From Selaginella moellendorffii (lineage: Eukaryota; Plantae; Lycopodiophyta), in NCBI RefSeq assembly GCF_000143415.4, contig NW_003314376.1:62001-126000 (forward strand): a stretch of 64,000 nt of DNA, read 5' to 3'. Every line of letters starts with the position of its first letter. Positions within the stretch are counted from its first letter, which is position 1. Position numbers and translations under genes: made by a program. Shown here one piece after another: positions 26,439-55,569 of this stretch. The notes under the pieces were generated by a model. It searched no databases, was not told where the DNA came from, and saw only the letters and a program-made list of their open reading frames with translations.

Positions 26439-28683
26439 TGTAAGGTTTGTAAATACATGTATGTATATATATGTATTACCCTAGCTAGGTAATACACTAA
26501 TTATAGTATTATAGCATATGAATTATCCATTTGGGACCAAATCTGATCCATTCATTTTTGTATATAAGCATGGGACTAAACCCTACTTAATATATCTATT
26601 CCTATATCCTAAGCACTCACATTAGTGGAGGTGAAAGGCATTGCAATTTATCCCTAAAGGGCAAAGCTTTTTGATAGTGCTTTGTTCTAGTGTTTGGGAT
26701 TGTGTTTTTTTATTCTTATTTCTTCATTTTATTATAGATTTAGATTTGTATTAGCTTTTTGCAAGATTTAGAATTCTAGTTATCGTTGTGCTTAGATTTG
26801 CTCTTTCTTCTGATCATTATTGCATTCTCTTCCTCTACCATACCATGCCGTCATCGATCAAAAAGTATGTCACTTGAGGTTGTTAATACTGCTCCGTTAG
26901 ATCTAACTTTTGGTGCTGTGGCATTTGATCATATTGGTATTGTGCCCATCCTTGATGTGTTATTTATTGGTATCCAACTTTTGTGGGATGTGATTATATG
27001 GCTTATCTTGTTCTCAATGTTCTACCATCTTCTATTGATGTGGAGTGTGATCATGATATTGATTTGTGCAATTTAATTCTTGGAGAATGTTTGAGGATCA
27101 AGTATGTGTAAAGACAATGTATACGAACTCGGGTGGATTCCAAAGTGTGATGATGAGCTTGATTATTATGGAGATAGTTTTGGAGATGAAGTGGAGATTT
27201 CACGAAGTAGGTGTCAATATTTCAATTTGTTATTTAATCCTTTCTCTTTCCCTTCTGCTCTTTCCCAACTATTTTTTAATTTTTCGGCCTGAGCCATCTT
27301 CTCAAGTTCTTAGTATTTCTTTTTCATTTGTAGTGTTTTTCTTTTTTTGGCTCATCAATCATTTATGACTCTCATGATTCTAATTCTCAGTCTAGTGTTG
27401 AGTTGAGTGTTTTCTATCCTCCTCATACTAATCTAGATATTGAGTGTATCCATGAAGTTGAGAATCTTGCTTTTGTTTCGTTAATAAAGTCTTTGATTAG
27501 TTCTGGTATTGAGTATTTCCCTATTCCAAGGGTTGAGTCACTTTGGCCAGAGTTTTGGGTTGAATGCATGTCCCCATTTGTGAGTGCCACTGAGAGTTTT
27601 TGCTTTACTATTGCTCATGAAGAGTTTATATATTCCCTTGAGAGTGTGAATGTTGTTATTGATTTTCCCATATTAAGTGTTGAGTTACGTTGAGTGGTGT
27701 GAATCTTTTGCTTATATTGTGGCTAAAATATTTTACGAAAGGAAATCCCATATTGACCAAGCTTTAAGCATATATTCATTTGATTTTCCATTTTTGCATT
27801 GCCAATTATTGCAAATTCCTCTTCCAATGCTTCTTTATTTACTTTTTCTTCTTTCACAATTGCTTTTACTCAATTTTTCTTGTTTTCTCCTTTTTGCCTT
27901 AACACTTCAAACTTTTTTTTCTTTAGAGGAGGGGGTAGAGGGGATAGATGGGAATTCGGCCCCGATGATGGAGTGAGGACGAGCGAATACGATAGTGGAA
28001 CGAGGACGAATGATATGGATTGTAGAGTGAGGACGAGCATAGCAAGTTTGAACGAAACATCCAGCTCCAATGTAATGAGGCCGAATAGATGCGATAGTGG
28101 AGTGAGGCCGGACATAGATGGCAGAGTGAGGACGAGCGCAGTAAATCCAAAAGGAGCTAGTGTTTCAAAACCATTTTTTCTTCGAGGAGGGGATAAGGAG
28201 AATGTGAAAGACGAATAGAGTGAGTCTAACCTCCCCAGTGCAAAGTTATAGTTGCGTGGTTGGTTTGAGCATTTGGGAGTTGCATAAAGAGTTGCAACTG
28301 GTTCATCAAGGTTCTATAGTGGGCTAATGATTATGCCATGGCTTTAGATTTTATTTCAATCATGGTTATCATCAACTTTATTGGTGGTTTTGTGCAAGTT
28401 TCAGATTATTGTGGTAATTTATAATTGCCCAACAGAAGCTCCAAATGTTCCACTTGACTTATTATTATCACCTTTTCATATTCCAAAAGGGAGGATGGTG
28501 TAAAGTTTGTAAATTCATATATGTATATATATATGTATTACCCTAGCTAGGTAATACATTAATTATAGTAGTATAACATATTGACTGTTCATTTGGGACT
28601 AAATCTGATCCATCCATTCTTGTATATAAGTAGGGGCCTAAACTTTCATTAATATACCTATTCCTTTATTCTGAGCACTCACA
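26439..28683 (+). mobile_element. Non-autonomous LTR element (NA) copy 2, uninterrupted
   Basis: LTRs 26439-26621 and 28499-28683; PBS-like TAGTGGAGGTG; PPT; ATAT flanks; empty AGAAT site near 28200. Confidence 0.85.
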
Positions 28684-29903
28684 ATATATATTTTATAAAT
28701 TATATGGCTTTTGGGATGGATCCAAATCTTAAAATTTGGGTTCACTGCAATATCTTAATATGGAGGGTTTATGACATTGGAAAACAACTAGATATTGCTA
28801 TTGTATTTGAATTTGATATATATTTATAAATAAACATTTACTTATAAATTACTCATAAAATAACAAAAGGATATTTTTTAAAGTTACACTCAAATGGATT
28901 TTATAGTAATAAATGTATATTCAGTAATACTAAATATAGTGAATTTATTCTGTAAATTAGGTCAGAAGGTAAAACCTCTATTAAATAGGAAATATTGCCA
29001 CTCAGATCTAAATATTATTTAAATTTAAATTTTTTAAAAATACCTGTTTAATAAAAATATTGCCACGAAAACATTAAGAAATTATTCTTTTGTGTACCAG
29101 AATATTTGAAAATATTTTAATGACTCCTTTTGCTCTCTCTATTATCAGATCTGTTTAGGACTACATTAAGTTGTACATTCTTGAGGTCAGTAGGAAGGCA
29201 TTGATTTGCTTGTTACAACTTACAAGTTCCAAAGGCATTAGTTTGGTTTTGGTACAAGATCCAGGCAGGACAACATGCTTGGAATACAAGGAATGGAGAG
29301 AGGCCACCTTGAAACAAAATCCATCACCTAGTAAGCTTTTAATAATTGGTTTCTTTGGATTGATCAATGCCCAATATCTCTATTTGTTTGTTCAGAAAAG
29401 CAAATGCACTTAAATTTTGAAAGAATGTGAAGGTGACGTTTCCAATTTTGAACTTTTGTAAGAAAAACAAGTTACTCATTTTAAAAGACTTTTAGCTATA
29501 CAAATATGTTGTTTACTAGCAAACCAAAATACCAATTAATATTAGTGTTTAGACAATTTGATTGGTACAGAAGACCATGCCAGTTGATTTATATTGTGTT
29601 GGTTTTACCAATTGCTTTACTCATCCTCTTGCATAACACTGCAAAGAAAAACACTATCCCTTTTCCTCCTCCTCTTGTGATTACTATTACTATAATATGT
29701 ATTATTATTATAAGCATTAGTAACATTCTTCATGGTTGCCTGCAGATGCAGCTTCTTGGCTATAGAAACTTGCTGGAGATGGTGGGCTTTCCAAAGCTCA
29801 TCTCTCAAAAGGCTCTTAAAATGCAACAAAAGCTGCCAGAATCTCCAAGGATGAGTATTAGAATGGTGAAGAGAAAAGTTTAGCATTTTTGTTTCTTTGC
29901 TAA

Positions 29904-34368: not shown

Positions 34369-36789
34369 TTAGCATAGAAACAAAAATGCAAAACTTTTCT
34401 CTTCACCATTCTAGTACTCATCCTTGGAGATTCTAGTGTCATTTTTTGTCACATTTCAAGAGTTTTTTGATTGATTCTAGAGCTCTAGCTATGGAGGAAA
34501 GTACTCCAGTTCTGCTGTGTAGTGTTAGTTATCCAAAACCAAAAGATATACCATGTATTTGGTTAGTTGGGTAAAATTGATGTATTTGGAGTTTTAAACT
34601 TTAGATGAAACAAGTTTTAAATTTGAAAGGAACACTTTACAACAATAACAATAAGGTAAACATTAGCAGTTTCTCAAGAAATTCTAAAAATGAGAAAAAA
34701 TAAATATGTGAAAATTACAAATGCATAATCAAATGAAGCAAAGGCAACATACTTAAGGGCATTATAGTTAAAGGCAAAAATTAAAAGTCTTAACATTAAA
34801 CAACAATACCATCATTACAAGTATATAATTTTCAATTATGGAATTGATACTATAAACAAGACGATTTACAACATCACAATAAACTAATTCCCATATATAT
34901 ACTTCCTACATTTGGTGGGTCTTTAATCCCTTATAAACATATTGTAAGGTTTGTAAATATATGTATGTATATATATGTATTACCCTAGTTAGGTAATACA
35001 CTAATTATAGTATTATAGCATATGAACTATCCATTTGGGACCAAATCTGATCCATTCATTTTTGTATATAAGCATGGGTCTAAACCCTAATTAATATACC
35101 ATATTAGTGGAGGTGAAAGGCACTGCAATTTATCCCTAAAGGGCAAAGCTTTTTGATAGTGCTTTGTTCTAGTGTTTGGGATTGTGCTTTTTTATTATTA
35201 TTTCTTCATTTTATTATAGATCTAGATTTGTATTAACTTTTTGCAAGATTTAGAATTCTAGCTATCGTTGTGCTTAGATTTGCTCTTTCTTCTTATCATC
35301 ATTGCATTCTCTTCCTCTACCATGCCATGCCGTCATCGATCAAAAAGTATGTCACTTGAGGCTGTTAATACTGCTCTGTTGGATCTAACTTTTGGTGCTG
35401 TGGCATGTGATCATATTGGTATTGTGCCCATCCTTGATGTGTTGTTTGTTGGTATCCAACTTTTGTGGGATGTGATTATATGGCTTATCCTATTCTTATG
35501 TTTCTACCATCTTCTATTGATGTGGAGTGTGATCATGATATTGATTGGTGTGCTATGGATAATGCAATTTAAATTCTTGGAGAATGTTTGAGGATCAAGT
35601 TTGTGTAAAGACAATGTGTACGAACTTGGGTGGATTCCAAGGTGTGATGATGAGCTTGATTATTATGGAAATAGTTTTGGAGATGAAGTGGAGGTTTTGC
35701 GAAGTAGGTGTCAATATTTCAATCTGTTATCTAATCCTTTCTCTTTCCCTTCTACTCTTTCCCAACTATTTTTTAATTTTTCAGCCTAAGCCACCTTCTC
35801 AAGTTCCTAGTATTTCTTCTTCATCTGTAATGTTTTCTTTTTTTGGCACGTCGATCATTTATGACTCTCATGATTCTAATTCTCAATCCAGTCTTGAGTT
35901 GAGTGTTTTCTATCCTCCTCATACTAATTTGGATATTGAGTGTATCCATGAAATTGAGAATCTTGCTTTTGTTTCATTGGTAAAGTCTTTGATTAGTTCT
36001 GGTATTGAGTATTTCCCTGTTCCAAGGGTTGAGTCACTTTGGCCAGAGTTTTGGGTTGAATGCATATCCCTACTTGTGAGTGCCACTGAGAGCCTTTACT
36101 TTACTATTGCTCATGAGGAGTTTATATATTCCCTTGAGAGTGTGAATGTTGTTATTGATTTTCCCATATCAAGTGTTAAGTTGTGTGTTGAGAAGGTTGA
36201 GTGGTGTGAATCTTTTGCTTATATTGTGGCTAAAATATTTTACAAAAGGAAATACCCTATTGACCAAGCTTTAAGCATATATTCTTTTGATTTTCCATTT
36301 TTGCATTGCCAATTACTACAAATTCCTCTTCCAATGCTTCTTTATTTACTTTTTCTTCTTTTACAATTGCTTTTACTCAATTTTTCTTGTTTTCTCCTTT
36401 TTGCCTTGACACTTCAAACTTTTTTTTCTTTAGAGGAGGGGGTAGAGGGGACGGATGGGAGTTCGGCCCCGATGATGGAGTGATGACGAGCGAATATAAT
36501 AGTGGAGCGAGGACGAATGATATGGATTGTGGAGTGAGGATGAGCATAGCGAGTTTGAACAAAACATCCAGCCCCTACATAATGAGGCCAAATAGATGCG
36601 ATAGTGGAGTGAGGCTGGACATAAATGACAGAGTGAGGACAAGCGCAGTAAGTCCAAAAGGAGCTAGTGTTTAAAAAAAAAAAAATTCTTCAAGGAGGGG
36701 ATAAGGAGAATTGTAAGGAACGGACTCCCCGAGATGTTGTAAGCTAAAGGATCCCCGAAAGCATGACCAAAATGACAAAGAGTTCATCG

Positions 36790-37085
36790 GATGGGACCTA
36801 GTCAAAGATTGAGTCCAAGACCGACTCTGAGACTGAGTTCGAGATAGAGTCCGGGATCGAGCTGAGGCCGAATCGGAGACCAAGATCGAGACCAAGTTCG
36901 AGACCGAGTTCGAGATAGAGTCCGAGATCCAAATCGGGTCCGAGACCGTGTCCGAGGTCGAGTCCGAAGTCGAGTCCGAGATTGGGTCCGAGATTGGGTC
37001 CGAGATTGGGTCCGAGATCAAGTCCGAGACTGAGTCCGAAGTCGGGTCCGAGATCGAGTCCAAGATTGAATCTGAGACTAAGTCC
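36790..37085. repeat. CpG-rich 6/12-bp tandem repeats (GAGTCC/GAGATC type) in the chromovirus LTR; also 49295-49520
   Basis: Repeated GTCCGAGATCGA and GTCCGAGACTGA units. Confidence 0.85.
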
Positions 37086-39538
37086 AAATACTAATACGGG
37101 TCAAGGGGTGAAAGCCCAAAGTGTGCGTCTCCCGGGGGGGGGGGGGGGCGGGGCTGTGGGGGGTTCCAAATTCCAAAAGTATTCCAAAAGGGATGGAAGT
37201 GGGGGGGTAGAGGTACCCATACCGGGCTGTTAGGCCACGGTGTTGCACCCAAGGCTTGGGATTTAAAGGGTCCCATGATCAAGTCTTGTTGTACCAAGGG
37301 GGGTTAGGAACCTGGAGGCTTGGTGTGCTTGGCTGCTTGTGCCTGCAGGGAGTGTAGCCGAACCTTAAGTCCAGTCTAACCCAGGGAGGGGGATTGGGAG
37401 AGATTTGGGAATCCGTGGATGGATGGCTAACGCTCCATTGCTCGTGTAGTGAGTAGCTGAAACCAAGTAGGACCAAGTAGGAGCTGGTACAATAGGTGGG
37501 AACCTTGGCGAGGGAACTTAGCACAAGTTAAGGCAATGTTGGTCGGATAGATGAGGTAAGCTGGCAAATTGGAAAGGAAAAATTTGTGGCTTACAATTTG
37601 GTATCGGAGCCTTTTCCTGAGTTCTAGCAAAGGATAGAGGCGGATTTCTGGGAGATGGCAAGGGCAGGGCATAAGAAAACCCAGGCGGAGACGGAACCTC
37701 CACCGGAGCTCGAGCCTACAGTCGAACAAGAGGGTATGGATGAGGAATCCTTGCATGAGGAGGACTCCAGTGAGGAAACTTCCAAACAGGAGTCTGGTGG
37801 TGAGGTTCGGTCGTCCAAGGCACGATTGGACGTTCTAGAAGGACAATTGGCACAGACCAATGCTCTGTTGGAGACTCTCGTACGCAAGCTAAAGCGTGAT
37901 GAGAAGCAGAAGAAAATGCGAAAGACTGTGGATGCTGGTAGTGCAGAAGGTGCGGACCCGTCGGTAGGGACTGAGGCAAAACCAGACAAGGTTGAACAGA
38001 CCGAAGTGGAATCAATCCCTCAGGCAGTTCCCAAGTACAAACCAAAGCCCTCACCGGTCTTCAAGGGAGTGAATGACTATAAGGTGGTGGAGGATTGGTT
38101 TTACGATATGGAGGATTACTTCCGAGCGTTGCGGTTACCAAGCTCGGAGAAGGTCCCATGTGCAAAACCATACTTGGCAGATAATGCCAAGTCTTGGTGG
38201 AAAACGACGGAGGCCAACGAAGCCACTTGGGAAATGATGAAGGCGAGGATCTGTGCGACTTATGTTCCTCCGAATGCTACTCTGCATCTAAGAGACGAGC
38301 TGAGTAGGCTGAAGCAGACCAGAACCATTCAAGAGTATGTGAATGGGTTTATGGCAAAGAGGATACTTGTCACAGACATGGGGGATATGGACGCTTTCCA
38401 TGCCTTCATATCGAGTTTGCAAACCTGAGCTCGCAGTGAGGTGATGCGTTGGAACCCAACCAACTACAAGGAAGCGTTGGATGCAGCCATCAAGGTGCAT
38501 TTCAATGATAACCTGCGAAAGGGGAACACGACGGGGTCGAGGTCCACGTTTAGCAAAGGGGCCAAACCAAGGGGAACGTATAGCAAAGGGAAATTCAAGA
38601 AGAGTTTCTCTAAGAATGAGTCCTCGGGGTTCTAGAAAGGCAAATCCGGCGGCCAGCGAGCAAGTACATGGGGGAGTCAAGCAAAAAGAGACAAACCCAT
38701 AGATAAGAAGGTCAAGTCATATAGTAACATGGGAAACAACGTATGCTACAACTGTGGTGAAGCGGGACACTTTTTGAGGGAATGTCCCTACCCAAAGAAG
38801 GCTAGAGCCAATATGGCCATCAAGTCGGGTGAAGTCCAAACTAAGGTATGTGATCCAGTCCCTAACTCAAAGTTACTCATTACACGAGCAACTTTGGTAG
38901 AAAGTCGTTTGCGACATCTACTAGCCCTCCGAGGGAAGCTCGGAGGTAACTTTGTTAAGATCCTTATTGACACGGGTGCATCGGATAATTTTGTGGTTGC
39001 AGACATAGTCCGGCAAGCCGGACGAATGGTGCAGTGGCTAGGCGAACCAAGGACTATAGAGTTTGTTCAAGGTAGCCAAAGCACCGATGAGGTACTTCGA
39101 CAAGCGAGAGTTGAAGTAGGGACATGGAAAGTGGACATGGATTTCACCGTGTTAGACATGGCGGGATTTGACGTGATCTTCAGAATGGATTAGTTCAATC
39201 GGTTCGTGGTAGCCCTGCATGGACAAGGTAGAAACCTTGTGGTACTGGCGAATGCCCAAGGAAAGAGATCTAGGGTGGAGGCCTAGGATCTAAAGGTAGG
39301 GCAAAGCAGGGCCAAAGATTCTTGTTTAAACCTGGTGTCCACGAGAGGACAACTCACTAAAGGAACTAAGGCGGCCTTTTTGTGCTTACTCTCAGTGAAG
39401 AGTGACAAAAAGACAAAAACGGAAGAAGTACCTTTAGTGATCCAACGGGTGTTGGATCAATTCCAAGATACCATGCCGGAGGAGTTACTGGCGGGGTTGC
39501 CCCCCGCACGACCGATAGAACATAAGATTGAGCTGGTC

Positions 39539-39700
39539 GAGGGTGCTGAGGCAATGGTTCATCCCCCCTATCGTTTGAACGAAAAAGAACTTGAGGGTGC
39601 TGAGGCGATGGTTCGTCCCCCCTATTGTTTGAACGAAAAAGAACTTGAGGGTGCTGAGGCGATGGTTCGTCCCCCCTATCATTTGAACGAAAAAGAACTC
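39539..39700 (+). repeat. In-frame 3 x 54-bp tandem repeat at the RT N-terminus
   Basis: EGAEAMV(H/R)PPY(R/C/H)LNEKEL three times, starting at 39539, 39593 and 39647. Confidence 0.95.
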
Positions 39701-41627
39701 GAGGAGCTCAAGTGCCAACTAAAGGAGTTGGTGGAAAAAGGGTATGTTAGGTTGAGCAAGTCGCCGTATGGGGTGCCGGTGTTATTTGTGAAAAAGAAAG
39801 ATGGATCTATGCGCATGTGCGTAGACTATCGGTTGCTCAACAAGTATACAAAGAAGAACAAATACCCTTTGCCAAGGATTGAGGACCTGTTCGATAGGTT
39901 GGGAAAGGCAAAATACTTCTCGAGGATTGACTTGAGGTCAGGATACTACTAGATCAGGGTAGCAGAGGAAGATGTCGAGAAGACAACCTGTCGAACTAGA
40001 TATGGGAGCTTTGAGTTTTTGGTGATGCCTTTTGGGCTGTGCAATGCGCCAGCAACGTTTTTGGCGTTGATAAACCATATCTTTGTACCCTATCTGGATC
40101 ACTTCGTGGTCGTCTATATCGACGACATCCTGATCTATAACGAGACGCTAGAGGATCATGCCGAACACTTGGCAAAGGTGTTTGAGAAGCTAAGGGAACA
40201 CAAGTTGTATGCTAAAGAGAGCAAATGTGACTTTGCTCAACAAGAGGTAAAGTTTCTCGGGCATGTGGTGGGCCAGGACAGGCTCAAGGTGGACCCAGAG
40301 AAGGTTCAAGCGATCCAGGAATGGGAGCGACCATGGAATGTACATGAGTTGAGGGCGTTCTTGGGGCTATGCAACTACTACCGAAAGTTTATCAGACACT
40401 ATTCGAGAGTAGCCCTACCCTTAACGGACCAAACAGGAAAGGGAATGATCGTATGGATAGCGGAATACAAGGCAGCATTTGTCCACCTCAAAGGGAAGTT
40501 GAGGAAGGCTCCCGTGTTGGCATTACTAGACTTTAGTAAGGACTTCGAGGTAGAAACGGATGCTTCAGACTTTGCGTTGGGTGCAGTTTTGAAGCAAGAC
40601 AACCATCCAGTAGCGTTCTTCTCGAAGAAGTTAGACAAGGCTCAACAGAAGTGACTTGCCCACGAGAAGGAATTGTTTGTGGTGGTCAAGGCACTCAAGG
40701 AGTGGCGACACTACCTTGGGAGACACTTCAAGGTTTACACGGACAATGTGGGAACGAAACACTTTTTGTCACAGCCCGACCTGAGAGGGAAATAGGATCA
40801 GTGGGCCAATGCCTTGGCCGAGTTTGATTGCGAGATTCTGTACAAGCCTAGGAAGAGCAACATCGTGGCAGATGTGCTAAGTCGAAAAGCGAGCTTGAGG
40901 TTGGCGATATCCAGTGCGACAGCAACCTTTTGGGACGATGTGCGGACAACATATGAGAATAATGGTCTAGCACAAGAAGTGTTGCTAAGGAATCTAGAGG
41001 CACGGGAAGCTCACCAGAGAGGTGAGCTGCCAACGGAAGAGAAAACAGGCTATACAGAACGCAATGGAGTCATCTATTATAAGCAAACGTGGGTGTATGT
41101 TCAAGAAGGGGAACTAAGGAAGGTAGCTTTAGAAGAGTGTCATGATGGACCTCTTGCGGGACACGGTGGAGTGCCCAAGATGATGGGCTTACTCAAAAGG
41201 AAGTACCATTGGCCAGATATGGCTAAGGACGTCCAAGACTATGTAAAGACATGTCCAACATGTCAGTAGATCAAAGCCGTGATTATGGCTAGTGGGGGCT
41301 TGTTGCAAAGCATCCCAATTCCAGATCGTCCGTGGAAATGTCTTACGATGGACTTTATCATGGGACTCCCCCTAAGCGAGGGGTTTGATGCGATATTCGT
41401 GGTGGTGGACCGATTTTTGAAGATGGCACATTTCATACCCACCACAACGGATGTGGATGCGGAAGGTGTGGCAAAGCTGTTCTTCGAACAAGTGGTTCGA
41501 GTGCGGGGAAGGCTAGAAGAGATTATCTCAGATCGAGATAAAATCTTCACTAGTAGGTTCTAGAGAACTCCCCTGGAACAGTATTGCACCAAGTTGAAAT
41601 TCAACACAGTCTATCACCCACAGACAG

Positions 41628-41674
41628 GTATGGGGTATTAAGTCAAGTTTGATGGCACTAACACTTCTTGATAG
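41628..41674 (+). other. Spliceosomal intron 1 in integrase (47 nt)
   Basis: CAG|GTATGG...CACTAAC...TTGATAG|AC; removal gives YHPQTDGQTERVN. Confidence 0.88.
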
Positions 41675-42376
41675 ACGGACAAACGGAAAGGGTGAATAGG
41701 CAGCTGGAGGATTATTTGTGATGATATATCTCGGGAGACTAGACCGATTGGGTAAGTCATTTGGGACTTAAGCTCTATTTCGTTAAAGTGAGAATTGTCA
41801 TTATCCTACTTGTAAAATAAGGTTTCCAAACCTTTATATAGTATATAAATATAACAAAATTCAACTGCATTGAGGCACATGCCATTTTATTTTAAACAAG
41901 GAAATGTCTACTCAATCACTTCTCCTCCTCCTGCCACTGCCTCACCTCTCTCTTCTCCTTGTCATCGTCATCCAATTTCTTTCCATCCTTTTAATATTGG
42001 CTCAGTTGCTCCGAGTCTAGGTGGAGCCCAAGTCCCCATTCAATCTTTACTTTCCCTTTATTAATAAAACAACTTCGTAAACTTCCAATAACATGCTGTA
42101 ACACTTCTAGTATAATGCAAATCCTCTCAAAGAATTGTCTTTTAATATTAATACAATGGCATGGAACCCCATGCCATAATAAGTTACATTTTTAAATAAA
42201 TACATACCATCTCAGACTGTTATTTTTTGCCTCCAACGCCTATACAATAATCTTGGAATTTCAACACTCTCCACACTATTAGGATTTAAACCCAATAGTA
42301 ATGCCATCTCTTCTCTAATACGTCCATGCTCATGTTTAGTGGTCAAGTCTGGAAACCTCGTCTCGCCCTTCATTGT

Positions 42377-43195
42377 TCAGTAGTAGGGGATCACGTCTGC
42401 GATGTCGGGTGTTACTGGACTTGCCAGCATCTTCTGCTTTAGTTTCTCCACCCACTCATCAAATACTAGCCTGTGGTTGTATTTGCTTTGGATGTCGATA
42501 CGGCTTACGTCGATTGTATATACATTGTTGGAATAGTAACAAGTACTATTATCTGCGACGATTTTTGCTGCCTCTTCTTGCTCTTTCTGCTCTTTGCGGC
42601 TCTTCTTTTTGGTGGGTGTAGTGTTCGAACCCGAGGCAATGGCATCACCGAGTAGCTTCTTTTTTGGAGCAGGAGAGTTGGACGTCGACTTGAGCTTGAC
42701 CACCCTTTTCTGCTTCAGGGTAGTTTCCAGATCGACCCCCTTTTCCTTCGCTTCGCGAACTGAAGGCACTCTCAACGGCTCAATGTTGGAATATAGTTTT
42801 TGAACATCGCCGTAGGTGAGGTCCGTGGATTCCATGTGATCTTCATAGACCCGTAGCGTCTTTGAAATTGTGGGCCTCCTGGACAACCTCTCCCTAGCTC
42901 CCTCTAGGAATTCCTCATAGCCGCTGCCCCCCTCCAGGAAGCCGCTAGGATGTGCAAGGTGGATCTTGAAGGCGGACGCTGTCTCTACCACAAGTGCCAG
43001 TCCATATTCTTGCATGGAACTGCATGGAGTGTCTGTCACTTGGATGAGGATCCCCATGCATTCTTTTCTCCCACCATCTGTGTTGTACAGCCTCAGATCC
43101 TCGCCTTCCATCCCGAAAGTCCAACTGGTGAGCTCCTCCCCCTTCTCTGCATCCACATTGACAGTGGCTGGAAGAAGAACGCAATTCCTCGCCTG
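42377..43195 (-). CDS. Transposon accessory ORF/exon of unknown function
   Basis: ~270 open codons after a TTTCTGAACAG acceptor-like site; basic KKK clusters; reading continues past the TGA towards a GTATGT donor. Confidence 0.5.
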   Translation of the reverse strand, partial: QARNCVLLPATVNVDAEKGEELTSWTFGMEGEDLRLYNTDGGRKECMGILIQVTDTPCSSMQEYGLALVVETASAFKIHLAHPSGFLEGGSGYEEFLEGARERLSRRPTISKTLRVYEDHMESTDLTYGDVQKLYSNIEPLRVPSVREAKEKGVDLETTLKQKRVVKLKSTSNSPAPKKKLLGDAIASGSNTTPTKKKSRKEQKEQEEAAKIVADNSTCYYSNNVYTIDVSRIDIQSKYNHRLVFDEWVEKLKQKMLASPVTPDIADVIPYY

Positions 43196-44044
43196 TTCAG
43201 AAATGCACAACAATTAGAGCTGACAGATGAAAAGCTAGCAGCTGGAAATAACGTGAGGCCACACGCCATTCACCACTGCATCAGATGTCTTGAGGCTGCA
43301 TCCTAAGATGGCGTGAGGCTACACGCCATCTGTAACCGGACTGCACTCGAGAGCCCAATCGGTGCATGCCAATGTTGCTACTGAATGGCATGTGGCCTCA
43401 TGCCATTTTCTACTTGGCCTAAAAGACTTACCATTTGAAGCCGAATGGAGGCGTGACAATCGAGGCCGGACTCGCTGGCGAATGTGCACTGTGTGTGCAG
43501 CGGATCGTAGCAGCAAGGCTACTCTGCCACTTACAGTTGGAGACTGGCGCTGAAATCTCTCGGGACGCCAAGTGGGCTGCGTGTGGGTGGCGGAGTAGGC
43601 GGCAGAGTTGGCGGCGAAGTTACAAACTGGGTGTGTCTTGAAGTGGACGCCGATGCACACGAGCGCGATGCGAGCGCGAGTGTGATGCAAGCGCAAGTGG
43701 ACGCCGATGCACACGAGAAACCTGTAGAGAAGGTAGATGAGCGCGAATGTGAGCGTGATCGCGAGTGCGAGCGCGAGTACGAAGCAAAATGCAAAACCTA
43801 ACCTCACACGCGTGAAATATCACGACGGTTGGTAATCCCGCAACGTCATCATTCCTCGGACTTGGGCACCACCATTAATTTCTGGATCGCCGCGCGCATG
43901 CATGCACGTGAAATCCAAAAGAAATCCGCAACGTCATCATTCCTCAGACTACATGCACGCGAAATCCAAAAGAAAGATCATGATTGGGATATCATTTAAT
44001 ACCCTCGCTATATTTATACCATGCATGATTGGATATTCCAAAGC

Positions 44045-45420
44045 ATCTTGTATTTCCAAAAATGCCAGATGTTCAGCTAAATAAAGAATGGTATACAATG
44101 TCCTTCTTGATGACCCTGCAAAGAAGCATCTCGATCGGACACCACATGAGACCACACGAGCTTTACAATGTTTCAGGGGCATTTGCCATAGATCCGACCG
44201 TTATTTTGCTCCAAGATTCTACAGTTTTGTGTGCATTGACCTTTCCATCGACACTGCAAAGGGACATCACAATCAGATGTGGGATCACAAGAAACCAACT
44301 TCACTAACTCTGGTTTCACCAAGATCTACATAAGGAGTTATGAAATGAAAGGACCCTCTTTATTGAAATGTGTTTATGGTCCTAGGGGCATTGTGACATA
44401 TCAAAGGATTTTGCATCAAGTTCTGTATTTGCATGTTTATCAAGCTACTGAATTGCTAAACCCTAAACCCTAAATATGTGGCAAATGCTGCGTGAAGAAA
44501 GATGCCCTTTTTGGGCAAATGCTGTAAAAGGCAGATGCCGAGCAGTTACACGGCAAATAATCTTCGCGTGGATCGCTGACATGGCATGGCAAAGTTCGAA
44601 TCACTGACATGGCACAGCTGGATCGAGGCAAGGACATGATGTGAAAAAGTTCAACGTTTGATAGCAAAGTCTAGAATCTACTCAGTTTGAAATTTGTCAG
44701 AGGAATTATAAAATCTGGTTTGTCAGAGGATTTGATGTGATGTTCAAGCGTGTGGGCTCATGCAATTTTGATCCCAAAAAATGCACCAAAAAATGCTCGG
44801 CGCCATCTGGCGTTATCTCTTGAATGGCGTGGGGCCGCATGCCATTTTCAGGGGCACATAGGAGTATATTCCTAGAATATTCTGACACGTGCTAGATATT
44901 TTTGGAGTTTTTTGGAGATCCAACCGTTAGATCGCAACTAGATTTTATAGAATGGTATACAATGTCTTTCTTAATGACCCTGCAAAGAAGCATCTCGATC
45001 GGACACCACATGAGACCACACGAGCCTTACAATGTTTCAAGGGCATTTGCCATAGATCCGACCGTTATTTTGCTCCAAGATTCTACAGTTTGGTGTGCAT
45101 TGACCTTTCCATCGACACTACAAAGGGACATCACAATCAGATGCGGGATCACAAGAAACCAACTTCACTAACTCTGGTTTCACCAAGATCTACGTAAGGA
45201 GTTATGAAATAAAAGGACCCTCTCTATTGAAATGTGTTTATGGTCCTAGGGGCATTGTGACATATCAAAGGATTTTGCATCAAGTTCTGTATTTGCATGT
45301 TTATCAAGCTACTGAATTGCTAAACCCTAAACCCTAAACCCTAAACATGTGGCAAATGTTGTGTGAAGAAAGATGCCCTTTCTGGGCAAATGCTGTAAGA
45401 TGCAGATGCCGAGCAGATGT
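44045..45420 (+). repeat. Internal direct duplication (~450 bp; ~44085-44545 and ~44950-45415), each copy with (CCCTAAA)2-3
   Basis: Near-identical blocks beginning AGAATGGTATACAATGTC. Confidence 0.85.
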
Positions 45421-46640
45421 ATCTCAGGCTAGCGAAGGGGACAAACAAAAACTAGCTATAAACATGACGGGATGCAAATAGATTACTAGGCTGGTCCTGC
45501 GAAAATCAAAAACCATAATTGAAAACATTGAAAATGCAAAAAGAAAGGTTTATAATATTTTTGAATTTTAAGCAACCAAAGGAATGTAAGTAGGGCATGT
45601 GTTTGTAAGTTTAAAAATGCCTCAACCACTTAAATTCCCAAGTAAATAAAGTTGTTTCTATTTTTGGTACAGGTAAACTTTATAACGTGTGGGCTCATGC
45701 AATTTTGAACCCAAAAATGCACCAAAAAATGCTCGACTAGCATTATTCTTTGAATGGCGTGTGGCCTTATATTGCCATAAATGGACGTACACACACAGCA
45801 TAATTATTCCTTTACACGGCGAATAATCTTGGCGCGGATCGCTGACATGGCATGGCAAAGTTCGAATCACTGACATGGCACAGCTGGATCGAGGCAAGGA
45901 CATGATGTGACAAAGTTCAACCTCCGACAGCAAAGTCTAGAAGCTACTCAGTTTGAAATTTGTCAGAGGAATCATAAGATCTGGTTTGTCAGAGGATTTG
46001 ATGTGACGTTCAAGCGTGTGTTATTTTTGAATTCTCGAACTCATTCCTAGGTTTATCATTTTTGTGCGCCGTGTTCTTGGTTCCGCTGAGCGCAGTGAGC
46101 GCTGCTTGTGTAAGCGGCGTTGTGAGCTATGGTTTATGCGTCTACGAGCGGTTGCGGCATTGCGAGCGCCATTGCGAGCGGCAGTTTATGCGAGTGGCAG
46201 TTTGTGCGAGCGGCGCTATGAGCAATTGCAGTGTTGCGAGCGGCGCTACGAGTAGTTGCGGTGTTGCGAGCGGCACTGTCTTTGGTGTGGCTACCGCTTC
46301 CTCTTGATATTCGGCACTTGTGCTTCCTGGTATGTTCACCATGGAATGGCTTAGGACCACATTTAGAAATGGCATGAGGCCACATGCCATCTTGGGCCCT
46401 TGCAATTTTATGGCTAGCGTATTGTCATGTATGTTTTTACTTGCTTGCAACTGTGTGTATATCAAGATGGCATGAGGCCTCATGCCAATTTTGTGAATGC
46501 AAAATTTCACGTGGGTGTCAATAGCATGTTTGAATAATGGCATGTGGCCTCATGCTATTGAGGTTGTTTGGTATGTTATGATTTAGGCCATTCTCCAATC
46601 ATTTTTTGTATGGTCTTAACTTCTTTTCTGCACTTTTAGA

Positions 46641-47552
46641 ATGGCCTCTGCAAGTGCGACACATGTTCCCTCCGTGGATCTTAAGAACCATGCTACATGG
46701 ATTCAGGCAAAGGTGTTTCTAAACAACCCCGAGGGGGAGGTGGTAGCTGAGGGTTTAGCCACAGTTGTCGATCCAAGAGATGCGGTTGCTAATCAAGAAT
46801 TGGGCTGGGATGATATTGGAGTTGCGATTTTAGAGGTTGTTGACATAGAAGAAAACAGTCTGACTATTGGAAGCATTGTGCGGTGGAAATTGAGGCACTT
46901 AATGTTTGAGAATGTGAAGGATTCACAATCAAACACCATTACAACTGATGACAGAACATCTCTTCATGGGAAAAGAAAGTACACCTTCCTAAAGTGCAGC
47001 CAAAGGGATCTGAGCAACGAACCGAAAAGGCAGAAAATGGCGATGGAGGTTCGAATGGTCTCGACAGTTGTTTGTTGCAAGAGGAGGTGCTGTCAACATG
47101 CTGATTGGGATGCTATTGAAGAGGAGAGAGCAAGATAAAAGACATTGTCCTGGAAGGCAGCTCACAATTTTGTGTATGAGGCATTACGGTCATCTGTTGA
47201 TGCTTCAGAACATCAGGTGGGGGGCATGGTCTTCCAGAGGGGTTTGGTCTGCATGAAGGCATGGAGAATCATTTATGGAGTCCCTCGAACCACATTCTAC
47301 AGAATCAAAACTGAGTTCGAGGAACAAAGGGTTCAACAGGCAGTCCATGGGAATGACGGTACTCATAAAACCAGGGGTCATGTTGTATATGGAGAGGCAA
47401 TCTTCAAGAGGTTTGTCGAGACATGTAACAAGCAGCACTTTTTTCCCTTTGCACTAGTATATCTTAATACCGGTCTGAGAAATAGAATGGCATGTGCCCT
47501 CAGGCCTTTTACTAAATCACCTTTGAAAGAAATGCAAGCCTCTATGTTGTAA
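46641..47552 (+). pseudogene. Truncated transposase N-terminus (Tnp1/En-Spm-like domain plus a Cys-rich Sola-like region)
   Basis: VVAEG..VDP..ELG..IGSIVRW, then CCKRRCC, VCMKAWRIIYGV and HGNDG; one internal TAA that is TAC in the second copy; no catalytic domain seen. Confidence 0.55.
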
Positions 47553-48377
47553 AAAAAAGGTACTAGAGAAATTCCTTAATAATATGAATGTTATTTAGTT
47601 TCATGAAAATACACTAAGGGTCAAATGAGTTAAATGACTTCTCCAGACTAGCAATGCCTCTTGCTACACCTTCACAATTAGATTCGTTAGAAAAAGATAA
47701 CATTGAATAATATCTAAATGTTCTCACCATTAAGTTATATGTCTGGCTAATAGGAATGACGTTCATCTTGGAAAGCTCACCACATGCTCAATGAACAAAC
47801 AAATAGTGTGTGCGCGCATGCCATCGCTCTTCTTTAGCTTTAGATTCGGCTTGTTCACCTTGACAATGAGATTTATTATACAACTAGATGGACTCAGTCT
47901 GGACACAAAGTCACCGCGCTAGTCACTATGCCCCAGATATGTCTAGCCCCTAGACAAAAAACATATAATTTCACGTCATTTTCAAATACTTGAAAATTTG
48001 TACCTAGTCCCATTTTACTGAATAAATCCCACTTTAACGAAATAGAGCATACTTGCAGAAATGTGTTATAACAACTCACCACATTCGAGTATCGGGGTGA
48101 GTCCATGGGAAGTCATCAATGGGTGAGCTATTAAAGGTCCCGTGGAACTTAGCGTGGCCAAGTATCATGGAGAGTTACCTGCAGTGGAGGCATTCACGGC
48201 GGAAAGACTCAACATTTGGAATCTAGTGACGGATTCCTTGGAACGGGCGCAACAAAGACAAACCAAGTACGCGAACCAGAAGCGCCGGGATATAAAGTTC
48301 TAAGCTGGGGAGAAGGTGTGGCTGAACACCAAGAACCTCAGACTACCAAGTGGGATCAGCTGAAAGTTGACCCAAAG

Positions 48378-48429
48378 GTAAAAATGCATGTATTCCTGTA
48401 AATGAATTGATCTGGAGTTCCTTAAGCAG
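48378..48429 (+). other. Spliceosomal intron 2 in integrase (52 nt)
   Basis: AAG|GTAAAA...CCTTAAGCAG|GT; removal gives KLTQRFAGPY and brings the chromodomain into frame. Confidence 0.88.
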
Positions 48430-48913
48430 GTTCGCGGGGCCTTATGAGATTGAGGCACAAATCGGTAAAGTGGCTTACTGTCTTCGACTTCCTCGAGAGA
48501 TGGGGAAGATGCACCTAGTGTTCCACGTAAACTTACTCAAGCTGTACTTTGAGGATCCGCTTCGCAAGGACCAAGTAAGACCTTTACCTGAGGTTATCCA
48601 AGGGGAAGAGGAATACGAAGTCGAGGCCATCCTCAATGTGCGCAAGAGCAAGCGACAAGGAAGTGAGGTGAGAGAGTTCCATGTGAAGTGGAAAGGATTT
48701 CCACACTGGGAAGCAACATGGGAACCGGAGGAGAACCTAGCGAACGCGCAAGATTTAGTGGAGGAATTTCTGCAAGGCAAAACTCGATGTACTTATGCAA
48801 AGTTCAATTAAAGTATCAATTTGCAAAGTTGAGCAATAGCATATGTTGAGACCCGAAGGCATGCCGAAGGTAAGCTAATTAGCACGGGTTAGCTAGGTCG
48901 ACTAGGCGTAGAG

Positions 48914-49040
48914 CACTACACCTGACTCCCCGTGGGGATGTCGAATCCGTAGACGTATTCTACGGAGGTTGGGTTCGAGTCCCAACCCCCTAGTAAAGCA
49001 AAGCTGGGTTCAAGTCCCGACCCCATACTAGGGCGTGGTG
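48914..49040 (+). other. Putative structured RNA element with two tRNA-like T-arms in the chromovirus 3' UTR
   Basis: Hairpins TCCGTAGA/TCTACGGA and GGTTGGG-TTCGAGT-CCCAACC, a second GGG-TTCAAGT-CCC, and enclosing stems CTAGTA/TACTAG and CACTAC/GTGGTG. Confidence 0.5.
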
Positions 49041-51549
49041 AGTTGAGGGGTATAGGGACACTTATATTCTGTTGTCATGGGCTCTAGGCCGGGGAGGCTA
49101 ACTTAGGCACACCGCTAAGTGGGGGGATGCCCCCGGAGACATGGTCAACAAGATGTAGGATAAAAAAAGACGTTCGATGTGGGCATCGAACTTCTTCTAT
49201 GGGTGGTAGAGTTGTAAGGAACCAACTCCCCGAGATATCGTAAGCGAAAGGATCTCCGAAAGCATGACCGAAACAACAAAGAGTTCATCGGATGGGACCG
49301 AGTCGAAGATCGAGTCCAAGACTGACTCTGAGACCGAGTTCGAGATAGAGTCCAAGATCGAGCCAAGGCCGAATCGGAGACCGAGTTCGAGACTGAGATC
49401 CAAATCGGGTCCGAGACTGAGTCCGAGGTCAAGTCCGAAGTCGAGTCCGAGATCGGGTCCGAGATCGAGTCCAAGACTGAGTCCAAAGTCGGGTCCGAGA
49501 TCAAATCTAAGACTAAGTCCAAATACTAATACGGGTCAAGGGGTGAAAGCCCAAAGCGTGCGTCTCCCAGGGGGGGGGGCTGCAAAGAGTTCCAAAAGTA
49601 TAGTAGGGATAGTGAGGTCCAGGAACCAGTCTTGAAGGAACTCTCCAGTGGTGCTTCCAAATTGAGTTGAGGTTGAGACTGGGGCTGAGGGGCCTTGGGT
49701 GGGAGTGAGCATGGGCTTGGGTGGTGCCAGACGGGCCACCCAGGGAAGTGCTCAAGAGCAGCTCCCACTCCCGAAAGGGAAACCGACTACGGTGCTCCCG
49801 GCTCATGTGGAGTGGTGCCCCACTTGAGTACCTTATGGCTCATTGGTCCTTGCCCTTCCTAGGGGCTTGGGCTTTCCCTTCGGGATGGAAGTGGGGGGGT
49901 AGAGGTACCCATACCGAGCCGTTAGGCCATGGTGTTTCGCCCCGATGTCCCGAAGTAAGTGTTGCACCCAAGGCTTGGGATTTAAAGGGTCCCATGATCA
50001 AGTCTTGTTGTACCAAGTTAGGAACCTGGAGGCTTGGTGTGCTTCGCTACTTGTGCTTGCAGGGAATGTAGCCGAACCTTAAGTCCAGTCTAACCCGGGG
50101 AGGGGGATTGGGAGAGATTTGGGAATCCGTGGATGGATGGCTAACGCTCCGTTGCTCGTGTAGTGAGTAGCTGAAACCAAGTAAGACCAAGTAGGAGCTG
50201 ATACAAAAGGCAGGAACCTTGGCGAGGGAACTTATCACAATCCAAGGTAGTGTTGGTCTGATAGACGAGGTAAGCTGGCAAATTGGAAAGGAAAAATTTA
50301 TGGCTTACAAAAATGTGAAAGACGAATGGAGTGAGTTTGACCTCCCCAGTGCAAAATTATAATTGTGTGGTTGGTTTGAGCATTTGGGAGTTGCATAAAG
50401 AGTTGCAACTAGTTCAACAAGGTTCTATAGTGGGCTAATGATTATGCCATGGCTTTAAATTTTATTTCAGTCATGGTTAGCAGCAACTTTATTGGTGGTT
50501 TTGTGCAAGTTTTAAATTCTTGTGGTAATTTATAATTGCCCAACAGAAGCTCCAGATGTTCCACCTGAGTTATTATTATCACCTTTTCATATTCCAAAAG
50601 GGAGGATGGTGTAAAGTTTGTAAATACATATATGTATATATATGTATTACCCTAACTAGGTAATACACTAATTATAGTAGTATAATATATCGACTGTCTA
50701 TTTGGGACTAAATCTGATCTATCCATTCTTGTATATAAGTAGGGGCCTAAACTTTAATTAATATATCTATTCCTTTATTCTAAGCACTCAAAATATATAT
50801 TAAGTTTTACATTCTTGAGGTCAGTAGGAAGGCATTGATTTGCTTGTTACAACTTACAAGTTCCAAAGGCATTAGTTTGGTTTTGGTACAAGATCCAGGC
50901 AGGACAACATGCTTGGAATACAAGGAATGGAGAGAGGCCACCTTGAAACAAAATCCATCACCTAGTAAGCTTTTAATAATTGGTTTCTTTGGATTGATCA
51001 AGCATGCCCAATATCTCTATTTGTTTGTTCAGAAAAGCAAATGCACTTAAATTTTGAAAGAATGTGAAGGTGACGTTTCCAATTTTGAACTTTTGTAAGA
51101 AAAAAAAGTTACTCATTTTAAAAGACTTTTAGCTAAACAAATATGTAGCTAAATATGTTTACTAACAAACAAAAATACAAATTAATATTAGTGTTTAGAC
51201 AATTTGATTGGTACAGAAGACCATACCAGTTGAATTATATTGTGTTGGTTTTACCAATTGCTTTACTCATCCTCTTGCATAACACTGCAAAGCAAAACAC
51301 TATCCCTTTTCCTCCTCCTCTTGTGATTACTATTACTATAATATGTATTATTATTATAAGCATTAGTAACATTCTTCATGGTTGCCTGCAGATGCAGCTT
51401 CTTGGCTATAGAAACTTGCTGGAGATGGTGGGCTTTCCAAAGCTCATCTCTCAAAAGGCTCTTGAAATGCAACAAAAGCTGCCAGAATCTCCAAGGATGA
51501 GTATTAGAATGGTGAAGAGAAAAGTTTAGCATTTTTGTTTCTTTGCTAA

Positions 51550-51606
51550 GGGGAGATAGCTCAGATGGTAGAGCGCTCGCTTAGGGATCAATAACCAGCA
51601 TCTCCA
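51550..51606 (+). pseudogene. tRNA-Ala pseudogene with an internal deletion (arm A)
   Basis: Identical to 8676-8732. Confidence 0.8.
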
Positions 51607-52043
51607 AATATGTTTGATTATTGGATCGTTCCAGGCGTTTTGACCGATTTTACTGGTGTTGACCTCTGGGGGAGCTATGGATGGATGTTGCACCGTGAGA
51701 CTGTCAACAGAGCAATGCAAAGATATTTATCTTGTGTTCTTTTTCCCACATGTTTGCAAACGAGTAAACAAGTTTCGTTCACTGCAAGTACATTAGGATT
51801 GAGCCTGGAAAGGAGTTGCCATCAAATTAAAGATGTTGAAATATTGAGCATTTCGTGATTGTGAGATTAAATCGCTGTTCACATCTAGGTTTCTCTTCGG
51901 CATGCTCAGTTCAAGTCCGACAATCCACAGCTCTTGTTTTTTTCAAAAAGTACCTCTTTATTTTCTATTTTCTAAGTCAAGGGTTAGGTTATAATCTTTC
52001 TCGCTTGGATTTTTCTATTGTCGAAGCTCTCGTCAGGTAAGCT

Positions 52044-52802
52044 ATGGTCTCTCGCGCTCACGCCGCCCCAACGCTTGCCCGCCGAGCTCCAGCGCCCTGG
52101 CATGGCGGCCATCACCGAGCTTCACACCCGCGAGCTCCAGCTCTAGCTCCAGCACATCCACCACACCACCATGGACACCATCCTCGAGGAGCCCACGAGC
52201 CAGTGCCAGGTTTAGCTCCAGTTCTTCAAGGTGACGCTCCAGTTCGAGCCCCAGCGCCAGCTGCTTTCGTTCACCCTGCTCGCGGCCACCCTGCTCATCT
52301 AGCTCCAGCGCCTGATGCTCGCCACCACGATCCAGCTCCAGCAGCAGCAGTGTACCATCATCATCACGGTGATGGAGCCCCTCTGGTTGTTCACCACCAT
52401 CACCATGGTCACCACCATGGTCACCACCATGGAGGACGCCACAACCACCACCACCACCACCATCGTCGCGAGGGTCACGACGCAGCAGTGGCCACACCAA
52501 CACCCGCAGCAGTAGTTACAGTGGTTCGGAGGACGCCGTGGTCGCTGCTCCAGCTTCTTCTGTGGGTTTTGGTTGCGATCTTGGTGCTGCTCGCATTCTT
52601 TTTGCTCGTGCGATGGATGTTCTCTCGGAGGAAGCAGCGCAGTAATGCGATCTTTCAGGATCCCGGGTGGCAGATCGAAGTTGTGGTGGACGATTCTCTG
52701 ACTGAGAAGAAACAGTTGGAAGCTCACACTCGTGGTTCGCACAGCAATGGCACTCTGGGATTCTCCTCAAAGTGTCCTGCCAACACTGGCAGTGACGCGT
52801 AA
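52044..52802 (+). CDS. His/Pro/Ala-rich membrane protein, copy 4
   Basis: 252-aa intact ORF. Confidence 0.65.
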   Translation: MVSRAHAAPTLARRAPAPWHGGHHRASHPRAPALAPAHPPHHHGHHPRGAHEPVPGLAPVLQGDAPVRAPAPAAFVHPARGHPAHLAPAPDARHHDPAPAAAVYHHHHGDGAPLVVHHHHHGHHHGHHHGGRHNHHHHHHRREGHDAAVATPTPAAVVTVVRRTPWSLLQLLLWVLVAILVLLAFFLLVRWMFSRRKQRSNAIFQDPGWQIEVVVDDSLTEKKQLEAHTRGSHSNGTLGFSSKCPANTGSDA

Positions 52803-53199
52803 GTCAGCACAGTGCATGCCTTGTCACATGGAAGATTGTGTACAAACAATCTTCAAGGAGATGAAGTTGCAGAGCAAGAAGACAGCAGGGTCTTGCTCAC
52901 GGACGGTGAAGATCACATACAAGGGTCCACTGGTGGAAGTCACCAGACTTGGAAGTTATTGCGCAGCTGGCTCGGAACATGGACTGGAAAGTAGAGCAGG
53001 AACCTACTAAGTTTTGATTTGACTGAGCTATCCTCTAGAGGTGACGGGGGAGCAGACGTTAGTGCACCTCCAAAGGCCAGAGAAGTTGCTTGAGACGAAA
53101 GGTTTGAGAAAAGGTAACGTACTACTTTTGCTCTCTGTTCTTGCAGGTGCTCAAATCTCAACTTCGATGAGAAGAAGCAGAGCAGGGCATAGCGGCCAG

Positions 53200-53720
53200 A
53201 TAGGTTTCTCCAGAGTCAAGAGCATCATAAGCCAGGAATCAAGCAAGTGCAAAATTGTGGAAGTATGGTCGAAGTCTACACTGCGGCTTGCAACACAGGT
53301 TGTTTGACAGGATGGGACGAAGAACAGGATAGGTTGGTCTACCTCGCAAATTAACCCAATGCATTCGTCGCAAGCAGCCTCGTGGACATGTGGAAGCATC
53401 AGAAGTGTTCAGGAGGACAAAGAAACACGACGTTGGTTGCCTGGAACACGATCATCATGGGACATGCACGTCTTCTATCAGATGCAACGAGAAGCTGGCC
53501 TGCCTCCAAACGCAGAGACTTTGCATGGAGCAGCAAAACGTCGTTTCCTGGGAACAACCTTTGCTCTTGACTGCTACGAGCAAGCCGCAGCCAAACGCTC
53601 AGACTTTCATGGTGGCGCTCAAGGCACGCGGCGACATAGCAGAGAAGAGGCTCCACTCGCAGATCTGGGAGAGAAATCTGGAGGGAATCCACTACTCAGC
53701 GTGGTCGCTCAATGAGAGAA
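53200..53720 (+). pseudogene. Degenerate PPR fragment (arm A)
   Basis: TLVAWNTIIMGHARL, FYQMQREAGLPPNA, PNAQTFMVALKA. Confidence 0.7.
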
Positions 53721-55569
53721 AAGCTTTTCTTGGGAGGTTGGTAAACTTTGCAAGGAAAGAGTGTCATGCAAGGTTGATGGAGCCGTCAATCAAAGATGGT
53801 ACCTGAAAAGACGCGAATGGATCTTAGCTGGCACACCTTGGTGAAGAGATAAAAAATATGAGAGACAATACTTATCTCTTAATTAATTTGCTGTAGTATC
53901 ATTCATTGAGTAATTTAGTTATAAGCTTATTTGAGATTAATATTATAGTAGAATAAACAAAAATATACTAGAAAGTGTTTATACTGAAGTTTATAAATTA
54001 TAATCAAAAAAATTAATCTAAATGAACAACAACTATTAGATATTAAAATATCCTAGAATCTCCAAGCATAGTTTAAGTAAACCACTTATGGATCTATCAC
54101 TTTAAACCGATAGAAGCTTATTCACAAACCTATTTACATTATTATATAGAACTTTTTTCCCAAAACTTCTTTGATTAAAAACATATTAAACTTGGGAGTT
54201 AAGTTTCTCCAAGATTTTGTTGTTGATTAGATGTTATGTTTTTCTTTTAACCATGCTCTGTACAAATATATAACTTTTATAATTGTAATTCAAGTTCTTT
54301 AAATATTTTTTAATTTCATATTAGTAGATGAGAAACAACAAACATATGAACATTACAAATACTTGGTCAAAGGAAGCAAACACAGCATACTCAAAAGCAT
54401 TATAGTTGAAAGTAAAACATAGCCATCAAGCAGGAATACCATCATTATGAGTATATAATTCTCAAGTATGGAAGTGATATTATAAATGGAAAGCTTTACA
54501 ACATCATAATCAACCAATTCCCAATGTTTACATATAATGTTTACATATAAACATTAAAATTCTGAAATCTTTCATCCTTTGCATAGGATGGATCCAAATG
54601 TTAAAGTTTGGATTCATCATAACGTCTGAACATGAGGTGAAAAAAATAGATATTGGTATTGTATTTGAAACTAAAATAAACTTTATCTATAAATTACACT
54701 GAAAACAATATAGGGCATTTCTTATAATTTCACTCAAAGAGAGAGTTAATTCTTCAATAGAAGAAAAACATGCAACCATCACGAAACTTAAATGTATTAA
54801 CGACCTTGTCTAGATCAGCTGAAAGAAGGCACAAAGAAACTTGCCAAGCATCAGCAAGACAAAAGCACACAATTTACTTTGGACAACTCTCTATCATGAA
54901 ATCAAAAAAAATTTAAAGAACTTGAATCATAGTTACAAAGTTGTACATTTGTACAGGACAGAATGTAACATCTAATCTACTTGGAGAAGCTTGAGTCCCA
55001 AGTTTTCAAGTTAAGTTTAAGTGACCAAACACCATAGATATATAATTTCCTATATAAATAACCATTTGTGAAATATGATCCAGAGCATGATTGTCTCTGA
55101 TATTTTTATCTTTTGACCATGGTGTGCCCCCTAAGATCCTTTCGCCTGTTTTCATCTTTGTTTGGGTTTTGTTGATGGCTCCATCAATCTTGCATTACAC
55201 TCTTTCTCCATTTTCCTCACAAAGTTTACCAACAAGCTCCCGAGATGAGCAACACCTCCTAATACCCTCTCCACAATAAGATTGTATGTCCATTCCCGTC
55301 CCTGAAATAACATGTCATTGATGAAAAAGTCAAAGAACAAGGTAAGGAGATAAGCTCCAGAGCTTTCACAACTTTTCATGAAACTACCAAGCTTCAGTTT
55401 CGCCTTCACAAGAAGGTACTTGACTTACGTGATGCTTAGGCCAAGATGGTTGAGCTAGTTAGAAGTCTCTGACTTCAAGCTGTTTTAGCTATAAGATGAA
55501 ACAAAAAAGCTATGAACTAAAAATTATAGTACCTATGAACATCATGCTTTGTAAGGCACTCTCCAGGTA

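Follow-up and report, generated by a model that had tools for sequence, protein, structure and literature searches.

Very probable, family-wide and spliced introns inside the integrase of a Ty3/Gypsy chromovirus of Selaginella moellendorffii

An LTR retrotransposon that carries an intron on its sense strand normally loses it within one replication cycle, and intron loss of this kind is the classic proof of an RNA intermediate. How, then, can a segment with the look of a spliceosomal intron sit in the catalytic core of a retrotransposon integrase? The question is raised by a 64,000-nt stretch of the S. moellendorffii genome (the window, to whose positions all coordinates refer), at 41628..41674 on the forward strand. 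In our judgement it is highly probable that these 47 nt are a real, family-wide, spliced intron.

This segment (intron 1) is of the GT-AG type and in phase 1, and lies within the DDE core, four codons upstream of the catalytic glutamate of a Ty3/Gypsy chromovirus integrase. It begins with GTATGG and ends with TTGATAG, has a GC content of 38% against 45-46% in its flanks, and contains a branch-point-like CACTAAC at 41656..41662 on the same strand (the CTAAC at 41658-41662), whose A lies 13 nt upstream of the intron end and which probably serves as the branch point. The U2-type features of the intron are its GT...AG ends plus the donor and branch consensus. For random window segments of the same length set at this site (199,284 trials), the chance of GTR...YAG ends is 0.32%, and with a branch-like YTRAY added it is 0.06%. 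No other match to intron 1 longer than 11 nt was found within the window. An antisense intron at 41628-41674 was rejected, as the minus strand has no GT-AG there.

With the intron retained, the frame reads ...YHPQT GMGY-stop, the stop falling four codons into the 47-nt segment. The exon that follows picks up at GQTERVN, in which the Glu is encoded at 41686. From the second catalytic Asp (41531) to this Glu there are 35 residues, X standing at the split codon, and the same D-35-E spacing was found in 165/165 pattern-matching homologs (241 were fetched, the other 76 having no pattern match); the canonical D,D(35)E spacing is restored only without the 47 nt. A sequence-only reading of the locus had proposed a 47-nt phase-1 intron with a CTAAC just upstream of the DDE glutamate, and its coordinates, phase and motif could all be re-derived. 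The exact ends it gave fit as well, with the reservation that an AG precedes the donor, so that the boundaries may slide by 2 nt. It had also taken the unspliced frame to end the protein before the glutamate; this holds for the frame as read, but not for the protein of this copy, which already has nine stops upstream, and the effect of intron 1 on the protein therefore pertains to the family. The uninterrupted YHPQSNG motif to which it pointed in a neighbouring element, G1, is indeed present (at 18504), but G1 belongs to a distant Ty3 lineage and is too weak a control to be used as one. G1 itself (14370-19375) has LTRs and many stops, with no chromodomain seen, and a partial second copy, 93% alike, lies at 58492-60290.

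The element that harbours intron 1 is a Ty3/Gypsy chromovirus LTR retrotransposon, as its LTRs, primer-binding site (PBS), gag-PR-RT-RH-INT order, chromodomain and D,D(35)E triad attest. Its features all lie on the forward strand. The 5' LTR (36712..37595, TG...CA) is 92% identical to the 3' LTR (49213..50309) over 814 aligned columns, the pair differing at 63 positions (46/63 transitions), and the 5-bp flanks of the element agree at 4/5. By its sequence, the PBS at 37599..37611 is of the tRNA type, which we take to be that of initiator-Met. Pfam matches cover gag, zinc knuckle, protease, RT, RNase H, H2C2, rve, SH3 and chromodomain. Exon 1 (37655..41627), delimited with Pfam, translation and tblastn with the homologous protein P0242, holds gag, zinc knuckle, protease, RT, RNase H, the H2C2 part of the integrase and the codons of its first and second catalytic Asp, at 41351 and 41531. 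It is a single frame, broken in this copy by 9 stops, one of them at 41561 just upstream of intron 1. Exon 2 is in two parts, 41675..41769 with the catalytic Glu codon and 48056..48377 with the integrase helical region and the start of the SH3 domain; exon 3 (48430..48811) carries the remaining SH3 and the chromodomain up to the stop (Pfam SH3_Tf2-1 3.6e-12, Chromo (PF00385) 3.4e-17). A 54-nt unit forms an in-frame triple tandem at ~39540-39715, before the RT domain, where P0242 has no repeat. The aromatic residues of the chromodomain presumably occupy the cage positions. A passage of PMC6317226 places caged chromodomains in non-seed plants and algae only, by which the host would likely be a seedless plant.

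What breaks exon 2 is a 6.3-kb insertion with terminal inverted repeats (41770..48055, no strand assigned), which is private to this copy because DNA and probable-RNA contigs join 41769 directly to 48056. It is flanked by a 2-4-bp target duplication of ambiguous register, and related sequence occurs in inverted orientation at 61179-64000. The insertion carries an ORF at 46620-47552 (+), whose cysteine-rich pattern recalls, as we presume, Sola-type transposases, and a second ORF at 42377-43213 (-); neither is matched by Pfam. With 9 stops before intron 1, more after it and this insertion, the present copy is old and dead; an intact copy of the family was not observed. Since it retains LTRs, PBS, a near-perfect target duplication and both introns, it transposed with the introns in place.

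The surroundings are rich in repeats. Positions 1-36500 and 50300-58400 hold multi-copy repeats, nested and 1-4 kb in length, which are 93-99% alike and occur in both orientations; some carry histidine-rich low-complexity ORFs. A 4-kb duplication (6602-10590 / 49481-53466, 96%) begins within the 3' LTR of the chromovirus and extends into flanking repeats, and a further LTR piece lies in the flank at 28199-28692. An assembly gap of 100 N (62870-62969) is far from the introns.

The second intron of the integrase (48378..48429, forward strand) is 52 nt long, of the GT-AG type and in phase 2, and lies within the SH3 (GPY/F) domain. It breaks the frame and falls between KLTQ and FAGPY of that domain; the chance of canonical ends there is 0.47% in random-segment trials. 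With regard to a possible origin from introners, mobile elements that generate introns and would place one intron sequence at unrelated sites, introns 1 and 2 show no sequence match to each other, and intron 2 has no other match at E<=2 within the window. Two further candidates downstream, one of the GC-AG type (~48776-48839) and one marked by a donor-like word (48870), were rejected, neither being skipped in the sole contig of the probable-RNA run X20 that covers the site.

Are these segments a property of one copy or of the family? We searched sequencing runs at a threshold of at least 85% likeness to this copy; the DNA runs X1 and X2 represent one sample and the RNA runs other samples. On 39730-41800, X1 gave 20,748 DNA contigs, with a summed depth in the intron 1 bin of 910k vs 564k and 567k in the adjoining bins; on 48056-49290, X2 gave 14,988 DNA contigs, with a depth over intron 2 of 66k/68k vs 55k/31k beside it, summed contig depth not being equal to copy number in either case. 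Thousands of DNA contigs, 85% to >99% alike, cover the internal region, and the family is clearly a many-copy one. Two contigs ~85% identical to this copy cross intron 1 with 0 gaps and with its length kept. The 47-nt skip is not among the best 15 of 38 joints in X1, of which the lowest listed has a depth of 146, so that a rare intronless copy is possible. The 52-nt junction of intron 2 occurs in 0 contigs of X2, although unrelated deletions at a depth of 8-22 appear there (15 of 16 joints). DNA depth over both introns matches that of the flanks and no DNA contig has the intron 2 junction; the introns are therefore family-wide. That the 47-nt segment might be copy-specific or variable at its ends, which the sequence-only reading had named as its own refutation, was pursued in part, for presence and length, and is not borne out by the undiminished DNA depth and the two gap-free contigs. 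A sequencing or assembly error and a copy-specific insertion were both rejected as sources of the segment, which is carried across DNA contigs.

Evidence that the introns are removed comes from a 2,500-nt contig (depth 11.2) of run X18, which is RNA by an automated guess. The contig aligns in four gap-free pieces (39875-41625 to contig positions 1-1751, 41673-41769 to 1752-1848, 48058-48375 to 1852-2169 and 48428-48758 to 2170-2500), and leaves out precisely 47 nt at one joint and 52 nt at the other, the latter being classed GT..AG. X18 has 2 records on the stretch where the DNA run X1 gave 20,748, and is therefore unlike genomic DNA and transcriptome-like. As the sole X18 contig at both intron sites is doubly spliced, both introns were likely removed from the same transcript, although a contig is not a single molecule. 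Three raw RNA runs, X21, X22 and X23 (9.2 million each), gave 1, 1 and 0 reads. The X21 read, from a different sample and study, has bin depths of 0.54/0.33/1/0.24, that is 38+23+70+10 letters; the 23 letters of the intron bin equal 70-47, from which the 47-nt deficit follows. The sole X22 read ended at ~41603, short of intron 1, and so is uninformative, and X23 had 0 reads on 48056-49290. Contigs of X20 enter intron 2 from both sides, so that the intron is either retained there or the sequence there is DNA; this signal fits two RNA pools and inefficient splicing alike. Support from spliced RNA is thin, consisting of one contig whose RNA status is guessed and one raw read.

A trace of selection was sought by codon position, with the 32 coding rows of the X18 contig (among 40 of the 167 listed) and a threshold, <80% of DNA depth, that we chose ourselves. 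Downstream of intron 1, 7/8 family-variable sites fall on the third codon position of the spliced frame (p=0.003 relative to 1/3), as against 9/24 of the sites at which this copy alone differs (Fisher p=0.037 vs 7/8). The upstream control is without contrast (10/17 vs 14/23 third positions, p=1). The third-position bias points to selection on the spliced frame, but is suggestive only.

Where did the introns come from? Identity to the best-matching proteins is 55-64%, and the RT-RH region is 55-61% identical to angiosperm and other single-ORF chromoviruses. In an RT-RH tree (FastTree, 174 rows; 11/185 hits dropped for short alignment; no labelled reference included) the element pairs with P0138 as its sister (98), and both fall within a 95-row clade (97) that also contains single-ORF chromoviruses of angiosperms. 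From its features and tree neighbours, without labelled references, it appears to be Galadriel/Galahad-like. P0242, a cluster-mate of P0138, is one uninterrupted 1,578-aa ORF that aligns over both intron sites. Because this nearest relative has an uninterrupted ORF, the simplest reading is a probable intron gain in the present lineage, although the P0242 contig could be RNA-derived. The integrase motif is contiguous in 98/101 and 45/51 of the proteins reaching it (strict pattern; 120 examined per set), and no insertion in the motif was seen among these homologs, the exceptions being residue variants or truncated proteins, plus P0107. In the latter (865 aa, from an unrelated Ty3 element on a JGI contig) the predicted protein departs from the motif directly past QTDG and ends 35 residues on, which could reflect either a frameshift or an intron left unspliced, one codon beyond the present position.

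A Gag search of the protein collection gave 1 weak match at 29% and no close relative, and RT-RH searches of viral contigs gave no relative. In metagenome contigs, a pattern describing an intron at this very position (fixed codons, gap 30-60) gave 1 chance match; the pattern is narrow, so that the blank says little. This match, L001, was rejected as a same-position intron; it lies inside one long unrelated ORF (101-3330), presumably importin-like, and has no similarity to the window.

How, then, could such introns persist? We consider it probable that this two-intron multi-copy chromovirus family makes its integrase from spliced mRNA only and replicates from intron-retaining RNA, the two forming separate pools. 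Unspliced RNA would give Gag-PR-RT-RH and an integrase cut before the catalytic Glu, and the doubly spliced RNA would give the complete integrase. The reverse-transcription template would be the intron-retaining RNA, with spliced RNA largely kept from reverse transcription; if spliced RNA is excluded from replication, it would be understandable that no intronless copy was observed. The sorting we favour would be one of separate translation and packaging pools, as for BARE1.

Sorting would be superfluous if the introns were simply spliced inefficiently: most RNA would then stay unspliced and enter particles by mass action, while the integrase would come from a small spliced share. The shortness of the introns (47 and 52 nt) and the intron 2 letters in X20 contigs agree with this, and the level of foamy-virus pol mRNA is set by a suboptimal splice site, as part of PMC7828637 reports. 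However, the sole X18 contig at the sites is doubly spliced, and intronless copies would be expected in proportion to splicing, yet 0 X2 contigs have the intron 2 junction; we regard this account as unlikely. The family might instead be non-autonomous and owe its spread to a partner without introns that has diverged by more than 15%, its own splicing being incidental. A distant partner would be missed at our 85% threshold, the single fully seen copy is dead and expression is very low; against this stand two independent frame-breaking segments, precisely removed, with chance ends of 0.3% and 0.5%, and the downstream third-position bias, which together leave such a partner quite improbable.

The contig and the read that are without the 47 nt might also derive from an expressed intronless genomic copy, either a retrocopy or the ancestral form. 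The RNA status of X18 is guessed, the run stems from a different sample than the DNA, and some of its letters are rare or absent in X1/X2. But the same 47 nt are missing in two samples from two studies, X2 is without the intron 2 junction and a retrocopy would itself need splicing, so that we give this origin very little weight. Hardly credible to us is a gain of the introns in a domesticated or immobile locus followed by DNA-level duplication: the window does have multi-kb duplications, one including part of this LTR (6602-10590 / 49481-53466), but the copy at hand is bounded by an LTR pair of its own, with a PBS and a target duplication, and the internal region is covered by those thousands of DNA contigs, 85% to >99% alike.

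The reading with spliced integrase mRNA and an intron-retaining template can be extended. A candidate third intron (38846..38900, forward strand, 55 nt, AAG/GTATGT ... TTGGTAG) lies between the zinc knuckle and the protease. It has a strong donor, CTAAC and acceptor, and keeps the frame when retained; without it, the frame would shift and meet a stop 7 codons past the acceptor. Donor-like AG/GTRWG words occur 4 times in 4,170 nt, so this donor could be due to chance. Removal of the candidate could give a Gag-only message, EVD/BARE1-like. In the fuller scheme, which we hold to be possible but rather doubtful, the element would have gained several short spliceosomal introns and would run its expression by splicing, with a Gag-only message (38846-38900), a doubly spliced integrase message and, as the only RNA to be packaged, an unspliced genomic one, which cannot encode active integrase, spliced RNA being actively excluded from replication.

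A family that keeps two frame-breaking integrase introns likely must separate the RNA that is translated from the RNA that is copied, and the 47- and 52-nt differences provide built-in markers of which RNA pool gets packaged. The family is also a documented case of a retroelement that probably gained introns. Pipelines will score families of this type as frameshifted and dead. We found no LTR element with introns inside the integrase in the literature, though Repbase, the REXdb additional files, supplements and subscription papers could hold one; the portions seen of PMC7175516, PMC2911113, PMC12477816, PMC7730604, PMC13148404, PMC13547354 and PMC2864245 contain no integrase intron. What we describe is very probably an LTR retrotransposon that uses introns placed inside its integrase, these being real, family-wide and spliced.

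Several known systems share parts of this design. Ginger1 DNA transposons carry a Gypsy-like integrase with 1-4 mostly GT-AG introns (as given in part of PMC2836005), but they are cut-and-paste DNA elements with TIRs that encode an integrase and no RT, whereas the present element has gag, PR, RT, RH and LTRs; intron retention poses no problem for Ginger1, because it has no RNA intermediate. Penelope-like elements retain spliceosomal introns through retrotransposition, according to a section of PMC8557442, but have no LTR and no DDE integrase, and replicate by another mechanism. In foamy viruses Pol is translated from a spliced mRNA and not from genomic RNA (part of PMC7828637); there the splice removes gag upstream and leaves pol itself uninterrupted, whereas here the integrase is interrupted. 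Among chromoviruses, most members of the Tcn1 clade are without a tRNA primer-binding site and self-priming (a passage of PMC6317226), unlike the present element, in which a tRNA-type PBS follows the 5' LTR. The plant chromoviruses Galadriel/Galahad share with it a single gag-pol frame, a chromodomain and a tRNA PBS, but differ from it in that none of the homologs reaching the motif shows an insertion there.

Plant LTR elements are generally without introns, with Ogre and EVD as exceptions and BARE1 similar, as stated in part of a 2025 review (PMC12786077). The Ty1-copia element EVD, with its shGAG RNA, and barley BARE1 splice to make Gag, and BARE packages an uncapped, non-polyadenylated RNA pool and translates another (sections of PMC5580714 and PMC3735527). 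As here, splicing yields two RNA classes; the difference is that their unspliced RNA encodes the full Pol and the spliced one Gag only, whereas here the unspliced RNA cannot encode integrase. The present element works most like Ogre, a plant Ty3 element (Tat clade) that also uses splicing: an intron between PR and RT is spliced from a subset of transcripts and allows translation of the whole polyprotein, as a passage of PMC6317226 describes. In contrast to Ogre, PR and RT here share one frame, and the two introns, of 47-52 nt, lie inside the integrase of a chromovirus, one of them in the DDE core.
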